Virus record (IMG/VR): IMGVR_UViG_3300005077_000036
DNA: 20,000 nt
Reading direction: 5' to 3' (one strand)
DNA from: an uncultured virus (IMG/VR IMGVR_UViG_3300005077_000036)
Taxonomy: Duplodnaviria; Heunggongvirae; Uroviricota; Caudoviricetes
Under the pieces are notes generated by a model. It saw only the letters and a program-made list of their open reading frames with translations. It ran no database searches and was not told the DNA's origin. Shown here in pieces: positions 629 to 18,008 of this stretch (positions within the stretch are counted from its first letter, which is position 1; each line of letters starts with the position of its first letter). The translations under genes and the position numbers were made by a program.

Positions 629-680
629 CTAAGCGTTCGCTTAGCAAATGCTTGACGACCAGCGCCGTCGCAGGCACGCT
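628..680 (+). promoter_or_regulatory. Palindromic operator-like site plus sigma70-like promoter for the 689 gene
   Basis: Perfect inverted repeat GCTAAGCG-TT-CGCTTAGC (628-645), then TTGACG (652-657), a 17 nt spacer and CACGCT (675-680). The ATG at 689 has no SD. The 639-656 18-mer recurs at 9731-9714 on the - strand. Confidence 0.6.
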
Positions 681-688
681 CCAATTTC

Positions 689-1456
689 ATGACGCAGCAA
701 GGTCGAATCCGCTGGCATTTGGATTCTCGCCTGGTCTCGTACTCGATCGCCGTCTCCTCCGAGTACGCAGAGGGCAAGAACAACGTAGTGGCCTACACGA
801 CACGGTTGTGTGCACAGGCCGCCTTGCAGGCCGCTGCTGGGCTTGCAGCTCTCAAGCAGGCCTGTGAGGCTGCTTCAGATGCGGACGCCATCTTGCCCGG
901 CGAGGATGGCGCGAAAAAAGACCGAGTCGCCACCGTCTTCCGATCACTCGCAGGAATCATCGAAGCACAAGCCGGCGAGCTTCGCGACACCTTCGAACTC
1001 ATCTGCGTCCTCGCGGAGAACACGAACGAACAGCATCCCGCGATGGATAACATGCGCGCCTTGGCTCGGGGAATGGGGCTCGACCTGTCCGAGCTTCAGG
1101 TGCACGAGGACTCCGCGATCTACGCGGACGAGGCCGTAAAGCAAGCTCCCGAAAGGCCCATGCGAAAAAAGGGCAGCGCTCGCCCTGCGCAGCTCACCAA
1201 GGACTTGTACCGGGCCGACCGCATCCGGGATCTGGTCACGAAATGCCTCGCCCGAGAGATATTCTACGTTCGCACGGGCCCCCTCACAGGATCTCTAGTG
1301 CCCATCGAAGGACGAACAGCCTCCGGGTGGGTTGAGCTGGGGCGATTCCGAGCGTCCATGCGTGACGTGAAGCACGTGTGCAAGAAAGCCAACCGAGAAC
1401 TATCCTCCCTCAAGCACACGCACCGCGACATCCTCGAAGAGAACGGGCTGTCATGA
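689..1456 (+). CDS. Hypothetical protein (255 aa)
   Basis: Protein-like composition, lies downstream of the promoter-like motif, and its TGA overlaps the recombinase ATG (ATGA 1453-1456). No family recognised. Confidence 0.75.
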   Translation: MTQQGRIRWHLDSRLVSYSIAVSSEYAEGKNNVVAYTTRLCAQAALQAAAGLAALKQACEAASDADAILPGEDGAKKDRVATVFRSLAGIIEAQAGELRDTFELICVLAENTNEQHPAMDNMRALARGMGLDLSELQVHEDSAIYADEAVKQAPERPMRKKGSARPAQLTKDLYRADRIRDLVTKCLAREIFYVRTGPLTGSLVPIEGRTASGWVELGRFRASMRDVKHVCKKANRELSSLKHTHRDILEENGLS

Positions 1457-4400
1457 ACCAGCCGCCACGATTCCCAGGCGATTTGATCCCCAATCGCCCC
1501 GACGCTCTCGGCGTCGAACCCGATTCGCTCGCTCGCGAAGTGCCTTATGGTCAAGTTCGAGCAGAGTCTACGAAATATCTCAATGCTCTTCGTCGCCTGG
1601 TCGCCCGCCTGGAGTCTTACGCAGGCGACACCTCCGAAGAATACCGGCGAGGCAAACGAAGCAGCCGGATGTCAGGCTCCGCGACTGCGAGGGTGTACCT
1701 TCGCTCGGTCGAGATTTGGAGCGGGTACTGCTACGAGAAATTCGGCAGAGAGCTTGATCCGGGCGAAGTGAGCGTCGAGGAGACGTACAAATTCGCCAAA
1801 TGGATGCTCGGAGGAAACGATCCGAAAGGCCTCGCTCGAATCAACCCAGACACGAGAGGCTTTACGGTCCGCTCCAAGGGCGATGATGCGTACCGCTTGT
1901 TCCAAGCCTGCATCAGAGCAACGCGAACGCGCCAGCGCGTGACCATCGCAGACATCGCCAACGAGCTTGAGCCGGACCTTCGGGCGAAGTGGGGTGTGAC
2001 CGGGGAAACGTACGCCGGACTGCACGACGCGATGATCGTGCTCACCCGAGAACTTCGCGTGGTCGACCGCCTTCCTCCCCTTCGCGAGCTTCGAGCCAAG
2101 TACAAAGGGTACAACCCGGACGTCGAAAAAAATCCTCTCACGTACCGCTACGAGGTGTCTCCCGCGAAAGCCTTGAAGATTTCGAGCGTGGCGGAGTATC
2201 TGTCGTGCTTGTCAGCGGTGTGGCGGGAATTCAATCAGCCAGAGTCGGGGTACGAGGGACCGCCGCTGCGATTCAACCCGTGGACCGAAGTGGCAAGAGA
2301 CTACGCCCGGAGGACCGCACGCCAAGTACGTGAGCGCAAAGAAGCCGGCGAATCCACCGTCATCACCACACCCCTCGTGAAAGCGTGCCTCCTCGCTGCC
2401 GCTGGCGTGGGCCTCGAACAGCGCCGAGACACGCTGCTTTTGAACATCTTGGCTCGACAAGGACTCCGCTCGGAGGAGATCGCCGCAGCGCAGCGGCAAG
2501 ACGTGAAGGATCAAGATGGCGTGCTCATCCTTTCAGTTGTTGGGAAAGGCAGAAAGCGTCGAACCATAGCTCTTTCATCAGCCGTGCGAGATGCTCTCAC
2601 GGCCATGGACACCACCCTGCAGGAATTGACTGGACAGCGCCGCAAAAATAACGAAGGCATCATCGAGCCGTCCTACGGAGCGAGGTACGCAGCAGAGCTG
2701 CTGGAACCCACGTCCCCGCTCTGTCCAAGCCTCGTTCGATGGGGCGCCAACGCACGCGACGAGTTCCCCGAAGTGGCGGCGCGAGAGCCTCTCGACGTCT
2801 CCGGTATCCGAGCGATTATCTCCCGAATCGCAGAGCGAGCCCGCGTTCGAGAGGTGGCAACGGGCGTCATCAGACCCCTGAGCGCGGAGGAGCGGCAGCG
2901 GGTCCACCCACACTCGTTTCGCCACTACTACGCGACCGCTGCACAGAAAAACAACGTTCCCATCCGACAAATCCAAGAGGATCTCGGACACGCGACGCTG
3001 AGCACCACCGAAACGTACGTCGAGGTGTTCACTCAGAAGAGCCTCGCAGCATCAACCGCGGTCGGTCGAGAAATCGACGGAGGGGGGCCGCTCACACCCG
3101 AGCAGGTTGCTTCTTTTACTTCGAAGGCAAGAAGCGCCATCGACCAACCCGAGATCGAGCCCGCTCGGCCTGAGGACGATCCCAACTTCAAGCGCGACGT
3201 CTCCCCGTCGACGCGCATCGCGCCGGAGGACCGAGTCCTCATCGCGAACCCGTACTGGGCATACGACAAGGGCGACGACATGCTGGCCTACCTGCCGACG
3301 CCCACGGCGACGATATTCAGCGCCGACAACGCGCAGCGGCTGGCCCGGCTCGAAGCCGCAGAGATGAACGCCGCCGCCTTGGGCGACACCGCCAAAGCCG
3401 CCTTCATCAGCGCGGAGAAAGCCGCAGTGTCCGCACGGTACGCGTACCTTACTCTGCGCATCGGAAGGCTTAGCCGACTCCCGTGGTGGGCAGGCAGAGC
3501 CAACAGGTGGACGTCCGGCACGCTAGCTCCCGTCCCATCGCCGTTTCAAATCGCGGGGGACGATCAGCACTCAGCAGATTTTGGCGAGTCGCTGGATGAC
3601 CTCTTCGCCTACACGTTCCGAACGAGAGGACCAAGCGCGGCTTCCTCAATGGTGTTCTGGCTGACTGAACTCGTTCAATACGCAGGCGTAGCTCTTTGGT
3701 CTGACGCGGAGGAACGAGGCGACAAGTGGATCGCCTTTTCCGAGCCCGCGTACCCCGACGCCGGAGTCGTGCGCGAGCACGAGGTGGCAGCGTTCGAGGC
3801 GTGGCTGGAAGAAAAAGGTATCGCCGCTTGGGCTCCGGAGAAGTCCAAGTCAGCAGGGCTTATCAAGAATCCCGTCATGGTCAACCTACAATCACTACCT
3901 GATTGGTTTTGGCTTGCGGACCCTATCGCCCCGCTGCCCGACAAAGAAAAGAAGCGTATCCAAGAATGGATACTTATACTCCGCGGCCGACGAACAGACC
4001 GAAGGCGCGTCCAGCGCAGGATCGAGCGCCTCGTGTCGCTTGCCAAGGCGCTCGAAGTCAAAGCGCGTGCGTACAGAAAGAAATTCCCCACCGACGAGTC
4101 TAGACAAACACCTGCCGGTGTCACTGAATCACAACTTCTTGGGTGGATGCGAACCCAGCTGGAGGACGAGCTTGCGCGCGCTTTCCCCGAAGCCGCCGGC
4201 AAGGTAACAGCGCCCGACATGGTTCAAGCCATTGTAGACGGCGCCGAGAACGAAACCGTCGCTCTGACCACCCTGCTCGTTCGAAAAGGAGCAGCGCTCG
4301 ACGGAGGAGGAACGGGCGAAGGTTGGGACGTGACGATGCGCAGCCCAAGGGAGCGAGCCCGGCTCATGAGCCCTGAATACCTCACTTGGCAAGATGGCAC

Positions 4401-5505
4401 CGTGCGCCACTCAGAGCAGGCGCGTAGGGCTTGGTTCGAGGCCTACGGTACAGACTCGGAGTGCGTGGTCCGGCGCGCCCTGAGGGCCGTCTGGGAGCGC
4501 CGCAGGCTGCTTGCAGCCGGAAGCGACCGAGGGGCTTCCACGAGACTCTGGGAGCAGTGGCTCGCCTTCGTCGTTCCGTGCGCCCCGGAAATGGAAAAGC
4601 GGCTCATTGACTCCGGCTGGGTGCCGCCCGCTACCCCGACCGAACGCCTCGCTCAGCTACGTCAAATATGGCAAGGCTTCGTAGCTTGGATCGTTCAGCG
4701 GCAGGGCGTACAGCCGAAGATCCCCGCGCTTCCCCAAGAGGTCGTTGATCAGGTCTTTGGACCTCTCGCCTACTCCATCGAGCGATTCGTCGAAGCCACA
4801 CAAGGCAGCGCTCGCGCACAACCCCCCGCGCCAACCGCGCGCATGCCCGAAGCCACCGCTCCCGAGTTCGCCCCGTACGAAGACCCCGCCTGGCAGCGAG
4901 GAGCGCAAACACAGGCCCCCCGCTGGACGCCTCCCCCCGCGCTCTGGGAAACGCGACCGTACGACGCCAAGTGGCCCGGGTACCCGCTCGTTGACTGGAC
5001 CTTCGAAAATGGCCTTGGCCCCGCAACGAAACGCCTCGTCGACAAGTCCACCGGCCAGCTGTGGGCGCCCGTCACGGATGAGGACGTGAAACTGTGGAAG
5101 TCGCACATGCGGACGTACGCACGATGGAGGCGCCGGTTCACCGCTGCTGACAGGCGGTTCGAGGGCCCTCACATGCTGAGCGGCGAGAGGGTTGAGCCCG
5201 CGAAGCTCCGCACTCACGGCTGGGAAGATCCCGAGCCTGAAGGCGTCCAGTGGCTCGGCTACCCGTGGATCAGCCCACGAGAAAGGGCAAAGGCGGCGGC
5301 GTTCTACGTGCAGCTCCCCGTGCTGCCGGGACAACCCCTGTCGCCATTCTTCAACGAGTCCATGAGAGCCTACGCTCGATGGAAGCGCTCCGAGATGGGA
5401 GCACGAGCGAATCCCTCACCCGACATCCTCGTCGGCGGCGCCTTCGGCGCACCCACGGTCATGGAGTACGCCCTGCTGTGCGCCTGGCCGGAGTCAGTTG
5501 AGTAA
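1453..5505 (+). CDS. Giant tyrosine recombinase/integrase (~1350 aa) with long C-terminal extension
   Basis: RRDTLLLNILARQGLRSEEI (catalytic R 2467), VVGKGRKRRTI (K 2545), VHPHSFRH (HxxR 2911-2922) and IQEDLGHATLSTTETY (H 2989, Y 3016). Core-binding-like helices ATARVYLRSV and SSVAEYLSCLSAVW...NPW lie upstream. Start moved from GTG 1378 to ATG 1453 because of the ATGA coupling. Confidence 0.93.
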   Translation: MNQPPRFPGDLIPNRPDALGVEPDSLAREVPYGQVRAESTKYLNALRRLVARLESYAGDTSEEYRRGKRSSRMSGSATARVYLRSVEIWSGYCYEKFGRELDPGEVSVEETYKFAKWMLGGNDPKGLARINPDTRGFTVRSKGDDAYRLFQACIRATRTRQRVTIADIANELEPDLRAKWGVTGETYAGLHDAMIVLTRELRVVDRLPPLRELRAKYKGYNPDVEKNPLTYRYEVSPAKALKISSVAEYLSCLSAVWREFNQPESGYEGPPLRFNPWTEVARDYARRTARQVRERKEAGESTVITTPLVKACLLAAAGVGLEQRRDTLLLNILARQGLRSEEIAAAQRQDVKDQDGVLILSVVGKGRKRRTIALSSAVRDALTAMDTTLQELTGQRRKNNEGIIEPSYGARYAAELLEPTSPLCPSLVRWGANARDEFPEVAAREPLDVSGIRAIISRIAERARVREVATGVIRPLSAEERQRVHPHSFRHYYATAAQKNNVPIRQIQEDLGHATLSTTETYVEVFTQKSLAASTAVGREIDGGGPLTPEQVASFTSKARSAIDQPEIEPARPEDDPNFKRDVSPSTRIAPEDRVLIANPYWAYDKGDDMLAYLPTPTATIFSADNAQRLARLEAAEMNAAALGDTAKAAFISAEKAAVSARYAYLTLRIGRLSRLPWWAGRANRWTSGTLAPVPSPFQIAGDDQHSADFGESLDDLFAYTFRTRGPSAASSMVFWLTELVQYAGVALWSDAEERGDKWIAFSEPAYPDAGVVREHEVAAFEAWLEEKGIAAWAPEKSKSAGLIKNPVMVNLQSLPDWFWLADPIAPLPDKEKKRIQEWILILRGRRTDRRRVQRRIERLVSLAKALEVKARAYRKKFPTDESRQTPAGVTESQLLGWMRTQLEDELARAFPEAAGKVTAPDMVQAIVDGAENETVALTTLLVRKGAALDGGGTGEGWDVTMRSPRERARLMSPEYLTWQDGTVRHSEQARRAWFEAYGTDSECVVRRALRAVWERRRLLAAGSDRGASTRLWEQWLAFVVPCAPEMEKRLIDSGWVPPATPTERLAQLRQIWQGFVAWIVQRQGVQPKIPALPQEVVDQVFGPLAYSIERFVEATQGSARAQPPAPTARMPEATAPEFAPYEDPAWQRGAQTQAPRWTPPPALWETRPYDAKWPGYPLVDWTFENGLGPATKRLVDKSTGQLWAPVTDEDVKLWKSHMRTYARWRRRFTAADRRFEGPHMLSGERVEPAKLRTHGWEDPEPEGVQWLGYPWISPRERAKAAAFYVQLPVLPGQPLSPFFNESMRAYARWKRSEMGARANPSPDILVGGAFGAPTVMEYALLCAWPESVE

Positions 5506-5511
5506 TTTACG

Positions 5512-6060
5512 ATGAAAAGCAGAGGATTCGCACTACCAGCCCGCCCTCAAGCGTACTCCGTCGAGGGAGACACCCTCGCGGCCGAGACCGGTCGGCTCGT
5601 CCTTGTCCGGCATTTGCGAGCCCCCACGACACCGAGAGACGGCGTCTTCCTGCTCTTCCCCGCCCTTCCGAGGCCGTACGAGCTGCTCCGGGTGGACTAC
5701 ACCCACATTGCAGTGATGCTTGCGGACGAGCAGCTTGGCGGCATTGCGCCCCGCGGCGAGGGGTTCGTCGGGGCATGCACGGGGCCCGGCCTGCTCATCG
5801 CGCTCGTGGACTCGCTGTTCCTGTACCCCTGGCCCGCAGAAGGCCCGGAGTACGAGAGGATGCTCAAGGCGTCAAAGAAGGCGGGAGGCTCATTCGTTCG
5901 GGAGCACGGGGGGCTCGGCGCCGTGTTCAAAACAGGCGAGATCCACCAGCGCTGGACGCTGTCAAAGGTCCGATGCGACGCCAAGGGCCAGCTGCTTGGT
6001 GCGCTGGTAGAGCTGGTGGTGAAAGATGAGATGGACGACGAGCTATCGGACGTAGCCTGA
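5512..6060 (+). CDS. Hypothetical protein (182 aa)
   Basis: ATG 6 nt after the recombinase stop, plausible globular composition, ends at the strand convergence point. Confidence 0.7.
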   Translation: MKSRGFALPARPQAYSVEGDTLAAETGRLVLVRHLRAPTTPRDGVFLLFPALPRPYELLRVDYTHIAVMLADEQLGGIAPRGEGFVGACTGPGLLIALVDSLFLYPWPAEGPEYERMLKASKKAGGSFVREHGGLGAVFKTGEIHQRWTLSKVRCDAKGQLLGALVELVVKDEMDDELSDVA

Positions 6061-6073
6061 AGCCGTGGACTGA

Positions 6074-6514
6074 TCAGAACGCCCTGTACGGAGGCGCACC
6101 TGGAGGCGGGCCAGGGGGCGCCGCCGGGGCGGGTGCTTGGGCCGGCGGCTGCATGACCACGTCCGAGGCCCAAGAAACGCTCAGGACCGTCGAGGGGCGG
6201 AACGCGAAGTACAGGGTGGGCATCTGGTAGGACGAGGGCGCGTCCGCAGACTGGCGAGGTCGCGTCTCCAGCACGTAGTGCGGCTCCACTTCCGTGCCGT
6301 GATTTGCCAAGCGGCCAATCATCACCGGACCGCTTATCGGCTGCATCACGCGGGCTCGTTCCGGCGTCACCATGGCCGATACCGCAGGAGCAATGCTCAT
6401 CGCAGCCGGATCGAACGCTGGCATCACAAGCGGGCCTGCAAACTGTACCATGATCACTCTTCCAACGAGCGAAGCCCAGTCGAAATCGTCAGGCGGAGGA
6501 CCTTCCACCTTCAC
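6074..6514 (-). CDS. Hypothetical protein (~146 aa) with Pro-rich C-terminus
   Basis: An in-frame GTG at 6514 overlaps the upstream TGA (GTGA) with AAGGA just upstream. Preferred over ATG 6613, which would overlap the glycosyltransferase by ~100 nt. Confidence 0.65.
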   Translation of the reverse strand: MKVEGPPPDDFDWASLVGRVIMVQFAGPLVMPAFDPAAMSIAPAVSAMVTPERARVMQPISGPVMIGRLANHGTEVEPHYVLETRPRQSADAPSSYQMPTLYFAFRPSTVLSVSWASDVVMQPPAQAPAPAAPPGPPPGAPPYRAF

Positions 6515-7581
6515 ACCAGGTCCTTGATCTCCTTCGCCAGCTTCGCCGTCACGCTCTCCCATGACCAATTCTCCCTCACCCACGCCTGATTTTCTCTTGC
6601 GAGTTTCTGCCATTGCTCAATTCCCTCGATAAATTGCTTCAGCTCGGATTTGATTGTGATGGTGGGCGCCAGCCCGGACGGGTCGTAGCTCACCCCGACC
6701 AACATGGGGCCACCCTGAATCGGCACGCACCCGCACTGCCCTTTTACGTTTTTTAGCCACTCCAAGTGCCCGGTCTCGGCCGACACCAGGCAAGGCACCC
6801 CAACAGCCAATGCTTCGAGCGGCACCAAGCCGAACCCCTCCGCTCGGCTGGGCTGCATGACGCCGTCAAACTGAGCGAGCAGGGCACCCATGACATCCGG
6901 CGTTACCGCCCAGCGCTGTGTCACGGTCACCACGCCCGACGCGCCAAGGTCTGCGACGAACTCGGCAACCTTCCCAATCTGCGACGTGGAAACGACAACG
7001 GTCAGCACCTCCGAACTCGCTGCCGCCGCGAACCTTCGAATGAGGTGAAGGGTGTTTTTTCGTTCGATCGAGCTTTCCGCAAGGTGCAGGTAGTTCCGCC
7101 TGCCTGGCACAACCACACAAGGCACTTTGGCCGCCGCACTGCCGAGGGACTTGCTCACCCCATGCGGCACGACCTTGGTTCGGAACGCCCAAGAATCCGC
7201 CTCCTCGCCCGAGAATTCTTTCTGCATCGCGCCGACCACGACCGCCTTGCCCCAAGCGCTCGGCACGAGAACCCGCGTACAGTTTTCTCGTATGGCCCAA
7301 AGCAGCCCGGGAGGAAGCCACGTCGAATTGGGCGCGACCATCGCCCACCTGTGATCATGCCCCGCCATCGATAGAAGCCGAAGCATGTTGCCCGGACCCA
7401 CCATGATCCCAACAGCGACGCCCATGCAGGCATCATCAGATGGTAGTTCTCCTTGCTGGTAGTAAACGGACCCTGCCTCTATCCCGTGGTCTCGCAGCCC
7501 CTCAACAAGACCGTTTGCCACCACGTTGAACGAACCGTAGTCGCCCGCAGGCTGATAGATAGCTACTTGCATTTTTCTCAC
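6511..7581 (-). CDS. Glycosyltransferase, GT-B fold, family GT4-like (356 aa)
   Basis: YLHLAESSIERKN, and QPSRAEGFGLVPLEALAVGVPCLVS (E-x7-E motif). N-terminal GSFNVVANGLVEGLRDHG and VLVPSAW...VVPHGV. GTGA coupling to the upstream gene. Confidence 0.92.
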   Translation of the reverse strand: MRKMQVAIYQPAGDYGSFNVVANGLVEGLRDHGIEAGSVYYQQGELPSDDACMGVAVGIMVGPGNMLRLLSMAGHDHRWAMVAPNSTWLPPGLLWAIRENCTRVLVPSAWGKAVVVGAMQKEFSGEEADSWAFRTKVVPHGVSKSLGSAAAKVPCVVVPGRRNYLHLAESSIERKNTLHLIRRFAAAASSEVLTVVVSTSQIGKVAEFVADLGASGVVTVTQRWAVTPDVMGALLAQFDGVMQPSRAEGFGLVPLEALAVGVPCLVSAETGHLEWLKNVKGQCGCVPIQGGPMLVGVSYDPSGLAPTITIKSELKQFIEGIEQWQKLARENQAWVRENWSWESVTAKLAKEIKDLV

Positions 7582-8978
7582 AGCGACAGGTCCTTCGTGG
7601 GCACCTTCGTCCCAGCAGTCAGCTCGTCCACGCGATCTCGCATCATCCTACCGATTGCGTCGATCGAATAATTCGAGAAACAGAGGGGCGTTCTTAGGTC
7701 TTCGTCCCTGCTCATGTACAGCTGCCTCATGTAGCGCCCTAGCTCGTTGGCATCGTACTTAGCCCACTCGGAACCGGGAGCGTAGTTGTAGTAAGAGAGA
7801 GTTGGCTCCGACGCCCCTTGCGCACGGAAGCACATGCTCCACTTGTGGCCTTCGCAGTAATCAGGCGGGCCGCCCCAGCCAGCATGCAGAACCGGCAACC
7901 CGGCGACTCGCGCGTCGAACGCCGGAAGGTCAAACCCTTCAGTTTTCCCGGTGCTCAGGTACACGTGGGAGTTTTCGTAAAGCTGGACCATCTCCTCCCG
8001 CGTGTGCCGCACGTTCCAGTACCGAACAATGTGCCTTCGCAGCTCCGCTCGGGTCCAGCCCCGCGTCTGGGCGAAAGGCGACGAACATACCTCGTTGATT
8101 GCCTCCTCGATGTCCTTCGCGTAGCCGCCGTCGCCCTGAAAGTAAGGCGAGCACTTCAGAATGACTCGCACATCATCAGAGGGCTGAAACCACATCGCAA
8201 GCGCCGCAATGATCGCAACTTGGTTCTTCCTCGGCTCCCACTTGCCGATATGCAGGAACGTGAACGGGGCCGTTTTCGAAGGCGCGCGAGCGTGGCGCAT
8301 GGGATCTTGAAAATCCATCGGATGAGGCACGACGCGGATTCGCTCCCTCTCGATCCCCGATGAAACGAGCCATTCGACAGCTTGGTTGTGGGTCACCCAA
8401 AGCTCGGGAAGCTTGGTGAGCATCCACGCATCCTCCTCAGACGGCGGCGCTTCCCACGCGCAAAGCAGCACCGTCGTGGAGAGCATGGCTTTTCTCTCCT
8501 GCGGAGTCATTCGGTCGTAGTGCCGCGGGAAGACAACCCGACTCAACGCTTCGCTCGTGGGCACCACGTGACGAATCGTGAGGGCCGTTTTTTCATGCTG
8601 CAGCGTGGTGAGGTGTCCGATATGCTGACGCGCGCCCTCAGGAAGCTCGTGAAAAGCCGTGAAGCCAAGGACCCCATCATTCGATGAACGGTAGGTCTCG
8701 GACTGCAAGAAAAGCGGGATACGAGTGCGCCACAGCGCAAGCGCATAGCGCCTCACCGCTATGCACACCCCGTCTGCTTCGTTCTCCCAGGGCCCTCGAT
8801 ACACGACACCGACCGGGTATCTCGCTGGCCTACTGCATCGAGAATGATCGCCTTCGACACCCTTTTCTTTCGGAGCCAGTTCTTCGAATTGCTCCGGGTT
8901 CAGGCAAGCATCCTGCACGTCAGACTGTGCCTGCTCGTCAATTTGACGTTGAGCAGAAAGAATGTCGTCCTCAGACAC
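7578..8978 (-). CDS. Glycosyltransferase, GT-B fold, family GT4-like (~466 aa)
   Basis: FTFLHIGKWEPRKNQ, YLSTGKTEGFDLPAFDARVAGLPV (E-x7-D variant) and RIRVVPHP. Probable start is GTG 8978 (AAGGGG upstream, overlaps the previous stop) rather than TTG 9059. Confidence 0.9.
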   Translation of the reverse strand: MSEDDILSAQRQIDEQAQSDVQDACLNPEQFEELAPKEKGVEGDHSRCSRPARYPVGVVYRGPWENEADGVCIAVRRYALALWRTRIPLFLQSETYRSSNDGVLGFTAFHELPEGARQHIGHLTTLQHEKTALTIRHVVPTSEALSRVVFPRHYDRMTPQERKAMLSTTVLLCAWEAPPSEEDAWMLTKLPELWVTHNQAVEWLVSSGIERERIRVVPHPMDFQDPMRHARAPSKTAPFTFLHIGKWEPRKNQVAIIAALAMWFQPSDDVRVILKCSPYFQGDGGYAKDIEEAINEVCSSPFAQTRGWTRAELRRHIVRYWNVRHTREEMVQLYENSHVYLSTGKTEGFDLPAFDARVAGLPVLHAGWGGPPDYCEGHKWSMCFRAQGASEPTLSYYNYAPGSEWAKYDANELGRYMRQLYMSRDEDLRTPLCFSNYSIDAIGRMMRDRVDELTAGTKVPTKDLSL

Positions 8979-9681
8979 GGTACATTTTCCCCTTGTGAAT
9001 ACGGTAAGAGCAGCCGCAGTTTTCGTTCGAACAGGTGAGTTTCTCGCTGTCCATGACAAAGCCAGCGAACACGTACGGGGTCACGCCGCCTGCCGACTGC
9101 ATCTGGCGGATCTCGCCGGCACCCCGAGTATCGAGGAACCACTTGCGATGAGAGAACTTCACGTGGCACTGCGCTTGCCCGCTCGGCACGCCTCGCTTCA
9201 CGCACTCCGGGCAAACGAAAATGAGGATGTGCTCCTTGTTGTCGTCGACAATCACGTCGCAGAGCATGTCGATGAGCTTCTCGCTCTTGCCAGCGGGGTA
9301 GTACGTAACGGGCGTCATGGGCGAAAAGACATCGGCGAAGTTGTTCGCGAACATCTTTCCGCCACCCCGCTCCACTGGGATGGACGCGATAGCCTTCTCG
9401 CAATCGTGGACCGCCCGGCGCTCGTTAGAATCATGCTCGAACGCCCGGATGCGGTTGTCTTGCGCCGTCGTGGTTGTGCCACCACGAACGATCGCCTGAA
9501 AAGACCGCGGAACACCACCGCCCTGCGTAAGAAAAGGCGAACGGTCGGTGTCGGGGAGCGGCTCTGTGTCCGCCGCTGGCTCGGGAGGCGCCTGCTCAGG
9601 CTGCGGCGCGGACGATTCAGACGTTGACTTGGAGGACTCGGAGGAGTCGGAGGGCTCGGGGGGCTTGATCTCGCTCGTCAT
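8971..9681 (-). CDS. Hypothetical protein with putative Zn-binding motifs (236 aa)
   Basis: FVCPECVKRG and LTCSNENCGC motifs, with a disordered S/E/P-rich N-terminus. First gene behind the 9690-9731 promoter-like motif. Confidence 0.75.
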   Translation of the reverse strand: MTSEIKPPEPSDSSESSKSTSESSAPQPEQAPPEPAADTEPLPDTDRSPFLTQGGGVPRSFQAIVRGGTTTTAQDNRIRAFEHDSNERRAVHDCEKAIASIPVERGGGKMFANNFADVFSPMTPVTYYPAGKSEKLIDMLCDVIVDDNKEHILIFVCPECVKRGVPSGQAQCHVKFSHRKWFLDTRGAGEIRQMQSAGGVTPYVFAGFVMDSEKLTCSNENCGCSYRIHKGKMYRV

Positions 9682-9689
9682 ACCTCTCG

Positions 9690-9731
9690 TGACTAGCGAG
9701 TGCTTAGCAGAAAGTCAAGCAATTGCTAAGC
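9690..9731 (-). promoter_or_regulatory. Operator-like site plus sigma70-like promoter for the Zn-protein/GT/GT operon
   Basis: The - strand reads GCTTAGCAATTGC-TTGACT-17 nt (containing TGCTAAGCA)-TAGTCA-8 nt-ATG. It is 17/18 identical to 639-656. Confidence 0.6.
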
Positions 9732-9734
9732 GGC

Positions 9735-10169
9735 CTACTTCCGCATGTACAGGAGGGCAGAGAATACAGCCGATACCACCGACGCCGCCGCTCCCACCGC
9801 AGCCAGGGCCACAAGCGGAGCCATTTGCTGCTTGACCCGCGGCTCCAACTTCGCCCAGCTGATCTCGATGACCCGAGACAGCGCTTGATCCATCGCGGGC
9901 CCCACCGCCCCACCGATCAGGTCCGTGAGAGGATCGCCCGAGAGCCCCTGCACCCCAATCGGATATCCAGACGGGTTCGAGTCGAAATACCGCCGACCTG
10001 CCGGCGGAACATTCGACCCCACCATCGAAGGCGCCCCTGCAAGGATCCGAGGGCCGGCCGCCGCCGGGCGCCACGGCGCATGAGGGAAAGCTGCAGGCCA
10101 CCTGCCGTGGCCGTACGCCTTGGAAATGCCTGGGTCGGGGGAGATGGCGTTGATCTGGAAAAAGCTCAT
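9735..10169 (-). CDS. Small membrane protein with C-terminal TM helix (144 aa)
   Basis: LVALAAVGAAASVVSAVFSALLYMRK hydrophobic end with basic cap. ATGA overlap with the J-domain gene. Confidence 0.75.
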   Translation of the reverse strand: MSFFQINAISPDPGISKAYGHGRWPAAFPHAPWRPAAAGPRILAGAPSMVGSNVPPAGRRYFDSNPSGYPIGVQGLSGDPLTDLIGGAVGPAMDQALSRVIEISWAKLEPRVKQQMAPLVALAAVGAAASVVSAVFSALLYMRK

Positions 10170-10777
10170 GCGGCTCGCTCCTGCTGAATCTTCGCGTACG
10201 CTTGTTGTACTCGCCGAAATCGGGCTGCCGCCCGCTTTTTGCTTGCTTCGTCACCCTGCACTTTGTCGGGATGAACCTCAGCGCAAGCTTGCCGGTACGC
10301 GCGCTTCACGTCCACGTCGTCGGCCATCGGGTCGACACCCAACTCGTCGTAGGCTTCGTCAGTCGAAATGCTGTCAGACGCCGCCTCCGCTTCCGAGGGC
10401 GGCTTCCAACGCGGAACATGCGCCCCCGCGACCTTGTGACAATCGAAGCACACAACTTCCGCGGTCATCGCCACCGAGCAGTGACGCAAGCACACAGGCC
10501 TCCCGCACAACGCGCAAGCCGCCACCGCCGCACTCGCACACCCTCCATCCACCGCGCAAATCCGAGACGAAGACAGCACCGGGATCCAACGCCTCGGCGC
10601 CGCGCTGAGCACCGCAAACATCCACGGCGCTATCACGCTCCGTAGCAGCTCCTCGGTCTGCGTCCCCGCGACCTGACTGAAGGCGCCGATGGCACTGCCG
10701 AGCGATTTGGCGGCCTCCGCCGGACTCGCATTCTCTTTGCCGGTGACGATTTCACGAAACAGCTGCGAGAGGTTCAT
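10166..10777 (-). CDS. Zn-finger + C-terminal J-domain (DnaJ-like co-chaperone, class C) protein (203 aa)
   Basis: J-domain AYDELGVDPMADDVDVKRAYRQACAEVHPDK...AAARFRRVQQAYAKI with intact HPD. Upstream Cys/His cluster CAVDGGC..CALCGRPVCLRHC..CFDC. Confidence 0.9.
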   Translation of the reverse strand: MNLSQLFREIVTGKENASPAEAAKSLGSAIGAFSQVAGTQTEELLRSVIAPWMFAVLSAAPRRWIPVLSSSRICAVDGGCASAAVAACALCGRPVCLRHCSVAMTAEVVCFDCHKVAGAHVPRWKPPSEAEAASDSISTDEAYDELGVDPMADDVDVKRAYRQACAEVHPDKVQGDEASKKRAAARFRRVQQAYAKIQQERAA

Positions 10778-12985: not shown

Positions 12986-13834
12986 TCACTGTCGCACGGT
13001 TGCCGCGATATCGTCCAGTAGCTTCGTTACAAGAAGCTTCGAGCTGGTGAACCCAGCCACACGCGCCTCGACGAAAGCTATCGGACTTTCTACCGGCCGG
13101 AAAACAGCTCCCGCAATCCGGAAGCTCATGTCGTCGATGAGAATGTGAGACCAAGGCGCACCCGTCGCGCCGAACTTCCGGGTGTTCTGGGGTTGGAGCA
13201 GACGACCAAACCCGGACGCACCGCCATACGCTAGCAGCCCCACGTCGGTGAAGTAGGCCGCGGTCAGATCACTCAACTTCGGAATGTTGGACCGCTGCTG
13301 CGGGTACGCACTCTTGTCCGTGAGCGGAACGGGCGTTGGAACGAGCTGGTACTCCAGCAGACCTGGGCTCGTTCCCGCCACGTACACCGCGTACCCCATC
13401 GAGCCTGAGAATCGACCCGGCCCCCGCGGCACGTAGTCGTAGGAAGCTGCTCCCGAGAAGCCATACACAAGAACCTGGTACTCAAGAACGATGAGCGCCC
13501 TGTCCTGCCCCGGCTGCTCGTTGATCAGCTCGAAGCGGGTGTAGCTCGACGGCGTGCGCTCGGGAGCGAACCACGCCTGCGTGGGCAGGATGCGGCTCGT
13601 CCGTTCGTACGGAATGAATTCCGGATGCCGGGCCACTTGTTCCAGGAACGCACCCACTGGGATGGTCTTCATCACAGAGGGAAGCTTCGCAGGTTGCGCC
13701 TGGGATTGCGCGCCCTGAGACGCCGCCTGCGCCCGAGGGAACGGGACGCGGAACGACCCAGCTGGCGGGCAACCGGGCTGCTGCGGAGCTGCTCCTAGCC
13801 CCGCTGCCTGTCGCTGCTCTCGGGTAATGGTCAT
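12986..13834 (-). CDS. Beta-rich hypothetical protein, candidate minor capsid protein (282 aa)
   Basis: Alternating hydrophobic strands (ALIVLEYQVLVY, MGYAVYV, SFRIAGAVF, IAFVEARVAGF) and a flexible N-terminus with AAGLGAA. Third gene of the beta-rich trio. The CDS is solid but the product is inference. Confidence 0.5.
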   Translation of the reverse strand: MTITREQRQAAGLGAAPQQPGCPPAGSFRVPFPRAQAASQGAQSQAQPAKLPSVMKTIPVGAFLEQVARHPEFIPYERTSRILPTQAWFAPERTPSSYTRFELINEQPGQDRALIVLEYQVLVYGFSGAASYDYVPRGPGRFSGSMGYAVYVAGTSPGLLEYQLVPTPVPLTDKSAYPQQRSNIPKLSDLTAAYFTDVGLLAYGGASGFGRLLQPQNTRKFGATGAPWSHILIDDMSFRIAGAVFRPVESPIAFVEARVAGFTSSKLLVTKLLDDIAATVRQ

Positions 13835-13842
13835 GTGCTACC

Positions 13843-14814
13843 TCAGCCCGGGACGCGCACTCCCGATGGATGCAGAATTCGATACCCGAAATACCCGAGC
13901 TGAAGGATTCCAGCCGGGGATCGAGTCACGGTGTCGGTTGCGCCTGTCGTACACAACCAGGAATCATACTTGATCCCTTCGTGCCCGTCATACTGACCGG
14001 CCAAAAACGGCATCGCTCCAACCAGAGCGTCGATATTTCCAGCCGCCGGGTTGTTGACGTGCGTCGGCTCCGCCCAGAACTCGATCGTCTCGCCTCGCTC
14101 GAAATAGTCGAGCACCGGCAGCTGCATCATCGACTCAATACCGGGGGCCCAGAGCGCAAGCGGAACGTCTTCGTTCTGACGAGGGAATACCGTGTTTCGA
14201 ATACCGCAGTACCCGTCGAAGCTCATGGTGCGGAACGGGCTGCGATTCGTCGGGCGCTCCGTAAGAGCCGTGACCGGGGTCGCATCCGAAGCTCCACACC
14301 CCTCCGCCGCCAAACCCGACCAAGCGTACGTCTGCTGCCAGCCTTGCTGAGCATCCATGAAGTCGATCACGCTCGATACCGGACGGAAGCGGCCGAAGCT
14401 CCTGCCGACGTACGTTTCGGAAGTACCATCTTCCACGACAGAGAACGTGTAACTGGAAAGGAACGTCGCGTACCGCCCGACCGCAACGAACGGGCCGTGC
14501 TCCGTCACGGTGTAAGAGTTCTCCACCTTGCTGGTGGAGTTCGGCGCGATGCGCAGCTTGACGCTCACGTCAAACGGCACGCGCCGCCCCGGGATGTCTT
14601 CGATGTGCAGGACGTCCGGAAGCCCGATGACGGTGCCCATTCGGTTGGTGGAGTACCTCACCCCAGCAACCAGGCCCGACATCTCCCCGCGGAGCTGCGC
14701 CCGCGCAGCTCGCTCGTTTTGCAGCGCTTCTCCGAGCTTCTGCGCAGCCTCGTAGGCCTTGCGAGCAGTGGAATTCGCTGAGTTGATGGCATTGAGAATC
14801 TCATTGATGTTCAT
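13843..14814 (-). CDS. N-terminal coiled coil plus beta-rich domain, candidate minor capsid/vertex protein (~323 aa)
   Basis: AAGGAG 5 nt before ATG 14814. Helical first ~50 aa, then strands VPFDVSVKLRI, PFVAVGRYATF, ETIEFWAEP and ILQLGYFGYRI. Product is inference. Confidence 0.5.
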   Translation of the reverse strand: MNINEILNAINSANSTARKAYEAAQKLGEALQNERAARAQLRGEMSGLVAGVRYSTNRMGTVIGLPDVLHIEDIPGRRVPFDVSVKLRIAPNSTSKVENSYTVTEHGPFVAVGRYATFLSSYTFSVVEDGTSETYVGRSFGRFRPVSSVIDFMDAQQGWQQTYAWSGLAAEGCGASDATPVTALTERPTNRSPFRTMSFDGYCGIRNTVFPRQNEDVPLALWAPGIESMMQLPVLDYFERGETIEFWAEPTHVNNPAAGNIDALVGAMPFLAGQYDGHEGIKYDSWLCTTGATDTVTRSPAGILQLGYFGYRILHPSGVRVPG

Positions 14815-14875
14815 GGTCACTCCTTCAGGGAGACACGCTCGAAGAGCGCGAGATCAGGTGCGCAGACAAGGCTAC

Positions 14876-15815: not shown

Positions 15816-18008
15816 TCACGGGCCGAACACACCATTGCCTCCACCGAGATCGAAGATGCCGGTGTCGTCGGGGTTTTCGGAATAACCAACGGGCGTTGCC
15901 TGCCCCGTCGGAACGTAGTCGCTGGTCGTCGGAACGCCTGCGCCCGAAGCGTAGGCACCCACGCCCGCAGCTGCCTCCATGATGTCGAACGCCTGATTGA
16001 GGTTCGAGTCGGGCAGGACTCCCTCATTCACTGCGCCCATGCCGGAGTAGCCCGGGACCAGCTCGTAGTCGCCCATGCCGGCGATGTTGACGTTGCGCAT
16101 CACGTACTCACCGAGTTCGCCTCCCGGCATGAGGGAGCCGTCGGTGGAGTAGTATTCGCCGAGGCCAGCAGAAGCCTGGACGTACTCACCCAAGCCCGCG
16201 GCGGCCTGCATCGGCCCCTGGCCGAGACCCTGGATCGCCCAGCGGCTGGACAGGTCGACGGAGGGAACGCCACTCAAGCCCGAGAGCTTGCCCATGACGA
16301 AGCCGTAGACGGCCGAAGCGACGCTCATCGCACCGAACGTTCCGAGCGCGTCCTGGTACTTCTCGCTCGCGTCCGGATCCTGCGTGACCATGTCGACGAG
16401 CTTGTCGCCGAACACGAGCGCCAGCAGACCGAGACCACCGGAGATGTACGTGGAGTAAGCCGGGGCGACCCGGCCGACGAGCCACGGCACGCCGAGGCCG
16501 AGGGCACCGCCAGCGATGTGGTAACCCCAAGCATGCACCGGGTTCTCCGACGCGAAGCCGGAGTTCGCGAGCGCCTGCAGAACGGCCGGGTTGTACCGAG
16601 CGTAACCGCGTCGGCGCCAGCTGCGGCGGGCACGGCCCCACCCACGGCGACGACGGCGGCTGAACCGACGCCGACGTCCCGACGAGCGCCGCTTCCCACG
16701 GCTGAACCGACGCCGACGACCGTATCCTCGCCGACGGTAGCGACGACCGTAGCGTCCGCTGCTCCGAGAGTACCGAGCCTGGTAGCGGCGGTACTTGCGG
16801 CTGCGGGACAGAGCACGCCGCCACGCGCGGTAAGCTCCGTACGAGTCCCACAGTTGACCGGCCTGCTGCTCGGCCGCAGCACGAGCCGCCTGCTCGACTT
16901 CCCAGGGGCTCACGCCCTGCAGGTAAGCCGCCATCGCAGTGCGGGAGAACTTCGGAGGCTTCGGGACACGCAACTTGCGCTGGTAGGTCGGCGGAAGGAA
17001 CTGCCCCCATGACTGACGCGCCCACGGATACATATCCGACCGGAGAGGCACCCCACCGAAGGCCGAAGCCGACCGGCGAGGCACTCCCTCGAACGGAGAG
17101 CTGCGCGAAGCTCCTCGCGCCTGACGCTCCCGCTCACTGGCGAAGTACATGCGAAGGAACTTCTTCTTTTGCTCCTCCGTGTAAGCAGGGCTGTCCAGGA
17201 TTTCTCTCAGGTGCGGCGGCACCTGAGAACGAATCTGGTCCATGGTGATGTTAGCACGCGCCCTGCGACCGTATCCGCGGCGGCCCGACCGGCGACGGCT
17301 CACCCGACGACGACCGTAGCCGCGCGCCCGGCGGCTGCGGCGCATCTTGCGAGACCGCTTCCGCATGCTCCGACGACCCCGACGACGGCTCACCCGACGA
17401 GCAGCCACCCGGCTGCCCCGACGCCAGCTGCGGCGGGTGCTCCGACGCTTGGCCTTGCGTCCACGCCGACGCCGACGACCGCGATTTTCCTCCGCGTATC
17501 CGTCGAACAGGTCGTACATGCTGTCGCCTTCGTTCCGGCGCGCCCTGCGACGGCTCGACCGGCGCCGCTTCATCGGCTTCCAGCTGTAGGACCGGCGACG
17601 CCGACCACTCGAACTACGCCGACGACGACGCCGACGCCTGTTTTCTTCTGCGAAGGTAAACATATCGTTCTCCTCGTTCGTTGGTGAATTGCCACGCGCT
17701 CTGCGACCACGCGGCTCGCAGTACGATTCGGGCACAAAACGCCCAGACTCGTCCCGGCAGCGAGCTTCCGCAACACGGCTCAACTTGCGAGCCTTGCGAC
17801 TCACGAAGCGCCCCTTTTCATCACGGTCGCCCCGAATTCGGTTCGGTCGGCTCCCGTTCGGGATCGCCCCCATGGTCACACCCATGATCGCCGAGACACC
17901 CGGACCATTGCCCCTACTGCTGCGGTTGCGACGAGACCGAGGCGGATCGAAGACGCGATAGCTCTTCGCCATCCAACCAGGCAGTCTGTACATCGTCGCT
18001 TCAGCCAT
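15816..18008 (-). CDS. Arg-rich protamine-like DNA-binding protein with TM helices and GLG-repeat tail, candidate virion core/membrane protein (730 aa)
   Basis: Poly-Arg/Ser/Gly tracts over about aa 120-250 and 395-470, two RDxxGRFV motifs, three hydrophobic segments (IAGGALGLGVPWLVG, YISGGLGLLALVFG, FGAMSVASAVYGFVMG) and an acidic tail with repeated G[LMV]G[ED]Y. Confidence 0.8.
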   Translation of the reverse strand: MAEATMYRLPGWMAKSYRVFDPPRSRRNRSSRGNGPGVSAIMGVTMGAIPNGSRPNRIRGDRDEKGRFVSRKARKLSRVAEARCRDESGRFVPESYCEPRGRRARGNSPTNEENDMFTFAEENRRRRRRRRSSSGRRRRSYSWKPMKRRRSSRRRARRNEGDSMYDLFDGYAEENRGRRRRRGRKAKRRSTRRSWRRGSRVAARRVSRRRGRRSMRKRSRKMRRSRRARGYGRRRVSRRRSGRRGYGRRARANITMDQIRSQVPPHLREILDSPAYTEEQKKKFLRMYFASERERQARGASRSSPFEGVPRRSASAFGGVPLRSDMYPWARQSWGQFLPPTYQRKLRVPKPPKFSRTAMAAYLQGVSPWEVEQAARAAAEQQAGQLWDSYGAYRAWRRALSRSRKYRRYQARYSRSSGRYGRRYRRRGYGRRRRFSRGKRRSSGRRRRFSRRRRRGWGRARRSWRRRGYARYNPAVLQALANSGFASENPVHAWGYHIAGGALGLGVPWLVGRVAPAYSTYISGGLGLLALVFGDKLVDMVTQDPDASEKYQDALGTFGAMSVASAVYGFVMGKLSGLSGVPSVDLSSRWAIQGLGQGPMQAAAGLGEYVQASAGLGEYYSTDGSLMPGGELGEYVMRNVNIAGMGDYELVPGYSGMGAVNEGVLPDSNLNQAFDIMEAAAGVGAYASGAGVPTTSDYVPTGQATPVGYSENPDDTGIFDLGGGNGVFGP
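16657..16718. repeat. 20 bp direct repeat within the Arg-rich coding region
   Basis: CGGCTGAACCGACGCCGACG at 16657-16676 and 16699-16718 (encodes RRRRFSR twice on the - strand). Confidence 0.8.
17293..17400. repeat. 18 bp direct repeat within the Arg-rich coding region
   Basis: CGACGGCTCACCCGACGA at 17293-17310 and 17383-17400 (encodes RRVSRR). Confidence 0.8.

Follow-up and report, generated by a model that had tools for sequence, protein, structure and literature searches.

A giant tyrosine recombinase with a conserved C-terminal extension in large uncultivated tailed phages

We analysed a stretch of 20,000 nucleotides (nt), hereafter the window, from the uncultured tailed-phage record IMGVR_UViG_3300005077_000036 of IMG/VR, and describe in it the gene of a giant tyrosine recombinase, located at 1453..5505 on the plus strand and comprising 1350 codons and a stop. 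Its family score and its catalytic residues place the encoded protein in the tyrosine recombinase superfamily; its catalytic tyrosine is followed by about 830 further residues, parts of which are, judged from the alignments, conserved and constrained across a family of relatives. The protein represents a new, conserved architecture of a known enzyme family. A lineage of large uncultivated tailed phages has this giant protein as its resident tyrosine recombinase, usually with no other, and the gene is found among genes of DNA metabolism. With moderate confidence, we interpret it as a site-specific tyrosine recombinase with a built-in accessory module, a "giant" architecture that has not been described previously, and we infer that the enzyme is active.

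The longest open reading frame (ORF) in the window spans 1378-5505 (+) and would encode 1375 amino acids (aa) from a GTG codon; the runner-up ORF has 730 aa. Inside this frame, the ATG at 1453 overlaps the stop codon of the upstream ORF (689-1456) as ATGA, and the N-terminal motif of the family, NRPDALG (aa 14-20), begins 13 codons past the same ATG. The overlap and the position of the motif together make the start at 1453, and thus a product of 1350 aa, the best choice for the recombinase. When compared by tblastn to two related loci, L001 and L002, the recombinase is aligned in a single frame over aa 37-1141, and the conserved motifs of the family stay in frame up to the last residues of the window protein. 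An earlier note on this DNA, made from the letters alone, had described one ORF of about 1350 aa at 1453-5505 (+), a catalytic tyrosine at 3016-3018 with 828 codons behind it, and four tryptophan-rich motifs in the continuation of the frame. Our analysis agrees on each of these points: the frame is open throughout, with a start supported by the ATGA overlap and by NRPDALG; the tyrosine is Tyr522, inside the PF00589 domain, and 828 codons follow it; and all four motifs, namely LPWWAGRANRW (aa 676-686), LPDWFWLADP (aa 815-824), SECVVRRALRAVWE (aa 1002-1015) and LWEQWLAFVVPC (aa 1032-1043), are found in the recombinase, where they occupy the most conserved columns of the family alignment.

The superfamily assignment is carried by the catalytic domain (aa 320-530; 2410..3042, +). 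The Pfam model PF00589 (Phage_integrase) matches aa 322-527 with 69.6 bits, compared to a cut-off of 27.1 (E 3.7e-19), and the PHROG integrase families 1 and 216 match the recombinase at E of about 2e-21. The catalytic set R339, K365, H487, R490, H513 and Y522 is complete, and each of the six residues is kept in all 46 full-length relatives that were aligned with MAFFT. The best NCBIfam matches of the core are XerC (E 3.4e-22) and XerA (E 3.8e-21), with XerD also among the best, and matches to the sequences of PDB entries include the Xer proteins 4a8e and 1a0p (E 1e-17 to 1e-16). The equivalog cut-offs of NCBIfam are missed in every case: the score is 79.2 against a required 335.15 for XerC, 75.8 against 220 for XerA, and 61.3 against 329.6 for XerD. 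With scores below these thresholds, a length of 1350 aa and no copy on a cellular chromosome by pattern scan, the window protein is placed outside the Xer equivalogs. The Pfam output contained no protelomerase, topoisomerase or serine-recombinase (resolvase, recombinase or zinc-ribbon) family and no arm-binding family at E <= 0.01, the last of these negatives being one of hidden Markov model hits, which a diverged domain could escape; the NCBIfam output for the window protein likewise contained no protelomerase or topoisomerase family.

The part that precedes the catalytic domain (aa 1-319; 1453..2409, +), delimited from the family alignments, is basic, with a net charge of +10, and, at about 320 aa, is oversized as well. 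It is probably an expanded core-binding domain. The Pfam SAM-like domain gave no match in the window protein, and sub-threshold matches to PF13495 (SAM-like), at about 21 bits compared to a cut-off of 27, were obtained for two of the 46 relatives scanned. In our own reading, helix motifs of the N-terminal region resemble the core-binding helices of Xer proteins.

The window protein belongs to a family of similarly giant proteins. A word-index search returned 10 relatives of 1175-1633 aa, for all of which PF00589 is the sole precomputed domain. A HMMER search that took aa 530-1350 as the query and ran exhaustively over 1.84 billion cluster representatives yielded 53 proteins at E <= 1e-3, including 26 at E <= 1e-10. 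The subsequent Pfam scan took 46 of these 53 matches (it excluded P0013 and P0029, as well as P0002-P0006, for which the word-index search had already given the domains): PF00589 was located upstream of the extension in 37 of them, one (P0037) is an unrelated Sua5 protein, and the remaining eight are short proteins (468-664 aa) with no domain. The 46 full-length relatives in the MAFFT alignment, 1085-1633 aa long, are 19-35% identical to the window protein and have the same layout. The short matches lacking the integrase domain retain the C-terminus of the family, which points to truncation at the N-terminus. Four of the eight are fragments, three of them on contigs shorter than 3 kb and the fourth (P0048) in a 90% cluster with a 1281-aa "integrase". 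Furthermore, P0027 (606 aa) and P0019 (850 aa), both of which come from contigs of 14,381 bp, are probably the two halves of one frameshifted gene; this split could be a frameshift error or a pseudogene. Thus, no evidence of a free-standing extension gene was obtained among the HMMER matches, five of the eight short domainless ones being read as fragments or as a frameshift half. The earlier note had asked whether the fusion is conserved, which is the case in view of the 37 scanned matches and of the common domain order in the 46 full-length relatives, and had named as its refuting case homologues in which the extension is a separate known gene; none came to light.

The extension can be divided into several parts, using the family alignments and two structural models, of which model 1 is an AlphaFold2 prediction for aa 560-1110 made with the 46-sequence alignment, and model 2 covers aa 940-1350. 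The catalytic domain is followed by an acidic, poorly conserved linker with a long helical hairpin (aa 531-667; 3043..3453, +), the helices of which are predicted at residues 60-84 and 87-108 of model 1; alignment gaps indicate that the hairpin is missing in the branch of P0009-P0011. The next part, block A (aa 668-850; 3454..4002, +), is rich in tryptophan (6%) and acidic, with a predicted local distance difference test score (pLDDT) mostly of 85-97 in model 1. Its motifs are RLPWWAGRxNxW, GPTAA, VREH and LPxW..DP, and its residues W736, W759, R774, W784 and D823 are invariant in the 46 aligned sequences, with H776 kept in 45. A middle region of long helices (aa 851-960; 4003..4332, +; helices 291-318 and 328-351 of model 1), for which the mean identity to the relatives is 0.12, leads to block B (aa 961-1065; 4333..4647, +). 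Block B was delimited from the alignments and is basic, with an arginine-rich helix, pLDDT values of 80-93 in model 1 and 67-94 in model 2, and the motifs TIVH, GTDSECVxRRxxRxLWE and VPCxxxxE; H986, S1002, R1008, R1011 and P1042 are found in 46 of 46 sequences, E1003 and E1048 in 45, C1004 in 43 and C1043 in 42.

The remainder of the extension is of a different character. The variable region (aa 1066-1318; 4648..5406, +), defined from the sequence, the alignment and model 2, contains two small modules of the form W[PL]GYP...M(R)xYARW(K/R)R. This module is duplicated in the window protein at aa ~1180-1315 (about 4990-5400 in the window), and relatives have one copy or none; in model 2, it is predicted as three strands (243-268) followed by a helix (270-293), at pLDDT of about 71-76. 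The region from aa 1111 on comprises 208 residues in the window protein, compared to a family median of 33. The protein ends in a tail (aa 1319-1350; 5407..5502, +) with pLDDT below 50 in model 2, which carries a divergent version (NPSPD...APTVMEYALL) of a terminal peptide identified from the C-termini of the family; the family-wide form, N..x(8-12)..[LVM]PxP[VI]xLxF[AC], is recognisable in most of 57 C-termini, and P1334 and P1336 are nearly invariant in the alignment. The conservation of the extension is thus confined to aa ~596-1065 and to the last ~15-30 residues. Cre, lambda Int and XerD are tyrosine recombinases in which C-terminal segments are exchanged between subunits, and these exchanged segments offer an analogy for the conserved peptide that the family carries at the end of a flexible tether.

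Nine polar residues of blocks A and B, namely R774, H776, D823, H986, S1002, E1003, R1008, R1011 and E1048, are invariant or nearly so among 46 sequences that are only 19-35% identical, and could form an active or a ligand-binding site. A structural zinc site composed of H776, H986, C1004 and C1043 was also considered and set aside: the two cysteines are replaced in three and four of the 46 sequences, respectively, and this replaceability makes a purely structural zinc site less likely.

No known family or fold was recognised in the extension. Model 1 has a mean pLDDT of 79.8 and a predicted template modelling score (pTM) of 0.69, with 260 residues at 90 or above, and is mainly helical with a few short strands; model 2 has a pLDDT of 63.6 and a pTM of 0.37, reproduces block B, and shows the small module of three strands and a helix. 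Foldseek searches with model 1 found nothing at E <= 1e-3, either in the PDB (best E 0.68, template modelling score of about 0.1) or in BFVD (best E 0.14), and the best PDB match of model 2 had E 0.69. In the VIA search, which is independent of Foldseek and covered 48,161 chains, the best Z for model 1 was 8.1 over a 49-residue helical hairpin, a value that is usual for unmatched helical models, and the best Z for model 2 was 5.3, for a COMM-domain-like match to the small W[PL]GYP module, which is no more than a lead. At the sequence level, the extension lies outside all families of Pfam, PHROG, NCBIfam and PADLOC; the family profile matched PDB sequences in the catalytic domain and found no match in the extension; an ESM Atlas search with aa 640-1110 gave a best score of 0.82, which is the noise level; and tblastn matches in 50,697 phage records and 72,556 plasmids were confined to aa ~309-573, that is, to the catalytic domain. 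Accordingly, the extension, which the earlier note had called unknown, still shows no known domain beyond generic helical hairpins. It should be noted that the fold searches used the models of aa 560-1110 and 940-1350, rather than block A alone, and that negative fold searches are no proof of a new fold.

The family was seen here on metagenomic and viral contigs only, which are up to 182 kb long. Sixteen IMG/VR contigs carry family members, three of them close relatives and thirteen from a distant branch, and a scan of metagenome contigs added eight family loci. In the ten viral records that were examined, the giant gene is always uninterrupted (1190-1637 aa), and in nine it is the sole PF00589 gene; the exception, the 130-kb relative G003, has an additional tyrosine recombinase of ordinary size (a 318-aa frame, 13797-14348 of that record, minus strand). 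One of the ten (G005) is a genome of 143,727 bp with direct terminal repeats and a CheckV completeness of 100%; the nine others are classed as linear, with completeness of 13-96%. Judged by the completeness values, the genomes range from about 100 kb to more than 200 kb. A metagenome-assembled genome (MAG) of Planctomycetota is given as the origin of one relative, and the family possibly belongs to a lineage of large phages with Planctomycetota hosts. Two pattern scans were run over one genome per species for 185,579 species, with patterns derived from closer subsets of the family, the 46-sequence alignment being too diverse for this use. No full-length relative was found in these genomes: the first scan gave 13 pattern matches, none of them a relative, and the second gave 25 loci with the catalytic domain only.

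The giant gene is embedded in a conserved gene order, in the contig interior wherever positions are known, and not at the border of an element. The 255-aa ORF directly upstream (689..1456, +), the stop codon of which overlaps the recombinase start, has homologues of 31-34% identity directly upstream of the giant gene in L001, L002, L091 and L092, and no match in Pfam, PHROG, NCBIfam or PADLOC. Six nt past the recombinase stop lies a 182-aa ORF (5512..6060, +), the last gene of the rightward unit, for which we found neither a match in the same four libraries nor a homologue in the related loci. The genes farther downstream are on the opposite strand and include two adjacent GT4 glycosyltransferases (6511-7581 and 7578-9059, both minus), of which the first scores above and the second below the cut-off of the Pfam family "GT4 in conflict systems", as well as a DnaJ-domain protein identified by Pfam (10166-10777, -). 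This order (two GT4 genes, a 236-aa ORF, the DnaJ protein and further ORFs) is kept in L002 and L092; L003 and L091 have part of it. In 15 of 19 related loci, the distant branch included (L126-L128 are near-identical copies), the giant gene has a gene for an SNF2-family helicase at a distance of no more than 10 kb, and synteny with SNF2, GT4, DnaJ and other genes persists down to about 30% protein identity. The 90-kb relative G001 encodes, in addition to an SNF2 helicase, an AAA ATPase, a RecE-like exonuclease, a ParB-like protein, methyltransferases, a lytic transglycosylase, lectin-like proteins and one "virion structural protein". The setting is likely that of a large tailed phage. No capsid, portal or terminase gene was recognised with the profile libraries in the window or in G001, and this leaves unsupported a constant link of the fusion to the capsid module, for which the earlier note had asked to look; the conserved neighbours are instead SNF2, the 255-aa ORF, GT4 and DnaJ. 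The new multidomain class of recombinase that the earlier note had inferred stands with respect to architecture, which is distinct and conserved and has no model in Pfam, NCBIfam, PHROG or PADLOC.

Two other ORFs of the leftward strand were also inspected. The 325-aa ORF at 13843-14820 (-) shares 54-56% identity with the corresponding ORFs of L002 and L092, which makes it the best-conserved neighbour; it resembles only unnamed clusters of tailed-phage proteins (Atlas score 0.90, template modelling score 0.52) and may be a structural protein. The 730-aa ORF at 15816-18008 (-) has no family match and contains degenerate GC-rich direct repeats (D1-D3), especially at 16700-17640, where the local GC content is up to 0.69.

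Two copies of a 19-nt motif are present in the window, CGCTTAGCAAATGCTTGAC at 638..656 (+) and the inverted CGCTTAGCAATTGCTTGAC at 9714..9732 (-), which are identical at 18 of 19 nt; 200 shuffles gave an expectation of 0, compared to the two matches observed. Each copy ends 33 nt before a start codon, the first before that at 689 and the second before that at 9681, where the leftward unit begins. The pair, CGCTTAGCAAWTGCTTGAC, is intergenic at both ends, has extra GCTAAGC half-sites beside it, and brackets two convergent gene groups. There is no Shine-Dalgarno-like sequence before the ATG at 689 (positions 680-691), and the start at 9681 (-) has GAGAGG 5 nt upstream. The relative G001, with a protein-level identity of about 36%, has three copies of a related core, GCTTAGCA(A/C)GTG: two are intergenic and immediately precede predicted gene starts, one is inside a called ORF, and none is around the recombinase; a CTAAGCG copy in the same relative is located 13 nt before the 255-aa ORF homologue. 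The motif positions in G001 are 53818, 58434, 83380 and 26587 (regions L083 and L085). Only the TTGAC part of the motif is retained in L002. The motif is probably a lineage-specific promoter or operator. A sigma-70 promoter was considered as well, and a consensus scan gave no such promoter at either copy.

We favour the following interpretation of the layout, which consists of an enlarged N-terminal DNA-binding part, an Xer-like catalytic domain, a mostly helical module of ~470 residues, a variable linker and a short C-terminal peptide. The catalytic core would cut and rejoin DNA through Tyr522 and thus carry out conservative recombination on the phage's own DNA, and the extension would serve as a built-in accessory module for synapsis, for contact with a partner, or for the control of directionality. 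As such, it would replace the separate arm-binding domain, the host factors or the translocase that small tyrosine recombinases need, in parallel with the C-terminal domains of the large serine integrases, which make those enzymes self-sufficient. As for the reaction itself, the resolution or cyclisation of replicated phage genomes is our tentative first choice, at a level slightly short of an even chance; chromosomal integration and excision appear distinctly less probable, and other reactions account for the remainder. Resolution or cyclisation is favoured because the core is simple and Xer-like, because the neighbourhood is an interior one of DNA metabolism and not the border of an element, and because the complete relative is free, with terminal repeats, the genome sizes are in the jumbo range, and no integrated copy was found. 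Each of these grounds is weak on its own. A bolder version of the interpretation, which we put forward as a speculative possibility, is that of self-sufficient "large tyrosine recombinases", in which an extension with a novel fold would have an active or ligand site of its own, made of the nine polar residues, and would couple strand exchange to a second step. In this second step, the C-terminal peptide on its tether could control direction, or the SNF2 translocase encoded nearby could activate the enzyme, as the translocase FtsK activates XerD.

Several observations weigh against this interpretation. No link of the extension with DNA or with a partner emerged: block A is acidic, no fold match was obtained, and the fold searches gave no functional lead. 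Alignment of seven segments of the protein against each other with hhalign showed no internal duplication of the recombinase domains (all probabilities below 1%). The analogy with the large serine integrases is one of architecture only. No recombination site was identified, and neither an attP-like region nor a tRNA gene adjoins the giant gene in the window; among 12 related loci, a single one (L090, a 65-kb contig) has a tRNA gene, for tRNA-Arg (CCT) at 6029-6102, about 2 kb upstream of the giant gene. The genome scans relied on exact peptide patterns, so that diverged prophage copies may have escaped them, and the hosts of these phages may be poorly represented among the genomes scanned. Finally, the invariant polar set R/H/D/H/S/E/R/R/E has more the look of a site for catalysis or ligand binding than of a simple scaffold, which favours a different explanation of the extension, namely that it is a second enzyme (a nuclease, a phosphodiesterase or a nucleotide-processing enzyme) and the protein is bifunctional. 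The near-invariance of the nine residues at such low overall identity, the replaceable cysteines, and the modelling of blocks A and B as a compact unit with a pTM of 0.69 are all consistent with a second enzyme. Conversely, no enzyme family or fold was matched in Pfam, NCBIfam, PADLOC, PDB sequence profiles, Foldseek or VIA, and invariant arginine, histidine and glutamate residues are found at DNA-binding and interface surfaces too. We consider a bifunctional protein rather doubtful.

Of the alternatives, an ordinary temperate-phage integrase, in which the extension does the arm-binding job of discriminating between attP and attB, deserves the most attention, even though we regard it as unlikely. 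Membership in the superfamily, the status of sole such gene in nine of ten viral records, the binning of one relative with a Planctomycetota MAG, and the tRNA-Arg gene upstream of the giant gene in L090 speak for an integrase. Yet no full-length relative was found in the 185,579 species genomes with either exact-pattern scan, the ten IMG/VR records are classed as "linear" or "direct terminal repeats", and the gene lies in the interior of a conserved gene order. The implied genome sizes of about 100 kb to over 200 kb argue in the same direction, lysogeny being uncommon at such sizes. An enzyme of DNA topology or end processing, that is, a hairpin resolvase similar to protelomerases or a relaxase similar to topoisomerase IB, would account for a conserved core gene close to a helicase, and the known protelomerases are themselves enlarged members of the tyrosine recombinase superfamily; the core, however, has the recombinase-type set R-K-H-R-H-Y and is matched best by Xer proteins, the Pfam and NCBIfam outputs list neither a protelomerase nor a topoisomerase family, and the complete relative G005 has direct terminal repeats and not hairpin ends, all of which makes such an enzyme improbable. 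Still less credit can be given to an invertase that would flip the 9 kb enclosed by the two 19-nt motifs (638-656 and 9714-9732). These motifs are inverted, nearly identical, intergenic and beyond chance expectation, and they bracket the recombinase gene; against this, each copy faces its operon and has its end exactly 33 nt ahead of a start codon, which fits a promoter or operator, the related core in G001 is found at other gene starts and not around the recombinase, the copies do not have the usual two inverted arms around a 6-8-bp spacer, and L002 keeps only TTGAC. The possibility that the long ORF results from mis-assembly, or from two genes joined by a sequencing error, is close to refuted: the one relative that appears to be split into pieces of 850 aa and 606 aa is outweighed by 46 independent full-length relatives from several sources with the same domain order from the N-terminal motif to the C-terminal peptide, by ten viral records with uninterrupted frames of 1190-1637 aa, and by motifs that stay in frame to the end of the window protein.

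The recombinase with a built-in accessory module, as we prefer to see this protein, can be compared with several known systems. In the published classification, in the portion that we consulted (PMC8138268), tyrosine recombinases are proteins of two or three domains and roughly 300-450 residues, which fall into simple types, with a core-binding and a catalytic domain, and arm-binding types; within the same portion, the sole C-terminal addition is the single extra helix of RitC. The term "large" tyrosine recombinase, in the part of the literature represented here by PMC10214605, refers to the Tn554/SE type. No description of the giant family was found in full-text searches, a statement that does not extend to subscription-only papers and supplements. 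The Xer recombinases (XerC/XerD, XerA and XerH) have the most similar catalytic domain, with the full R-K-H-R-H-Y set and no recognisable arm-binding domain; in contrast, the giant protein is about 4.5 times as long as the solved XerD chain (290 aa), with an N-terminal part of ~320 aa and ~830 residues past the tyrosine, and has its gene in a phage, not beside dif on a chromosome. Tn554 TnpB, the "large" recombinase of the strand-biased circularizing element, RitA with its two core-binding domains, and RitC with its extra C-terminal helix indicate that the superfamily tolerates added domains. Nevertheless, these enzymes are much smaller, Tn554 TnpB at roughly 600-700 aa being about half the size of the giant recombinase, and what they have gained is either extra core-binding domains or a single helix; none of them is reported with a conserved C-terminal module of 500 residues, and none matched the extension in the searches performed here.

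Protelomerases (TelK, TelN and ResT) and phage enzymes of the topoisomerase-IB type are similar to the giant protein in being enlarged or repurposed members of the same superfamily that are encoded by phages and act on the phage genome; a jumbo-phage topoisomerase is treated in PMC7824862. They differ from it in that the giant protein has no match to their sequence families, has an Xer-like core, and has a complete relative with direct terminal repeats. The likeness to large serine integrases, such as phiC31 and Bxb1, is in working logic only: these enzymes, too, combine a small catalytic domain with a long conserved C-terminal region, which in the giant protein is predicted, in model 1, to include long helical hairpins. 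In serine integrases, this region provides site recognition and control of direction without host factors; their chemistry and fold are unrelated to those of the giant recombinase, and the parallel would be one of function, not of homology.

With a size three to five times that usual for tyrosine recombinases, the giant family suggests that a sizeable piece of recombinase biology has gone unnoticed, and it marks a little-known lineage of large phages, the structural genes of which escape current profile libraries. If the extension proves to be a second enzyme, it would represent an unrecognised step in the DNA processing of large phages. If the self-sufficient version of our interpretation is true, these proteins would recombine long DNA without host factors, through a new mechanism of site-specific recombination that might also supply tools for genome engineering. 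Should the extension confer independence from host factors or control of direction, the large serine integrases that are used in genome engineering would have their tyrosine counterpart in the giant recombinases.

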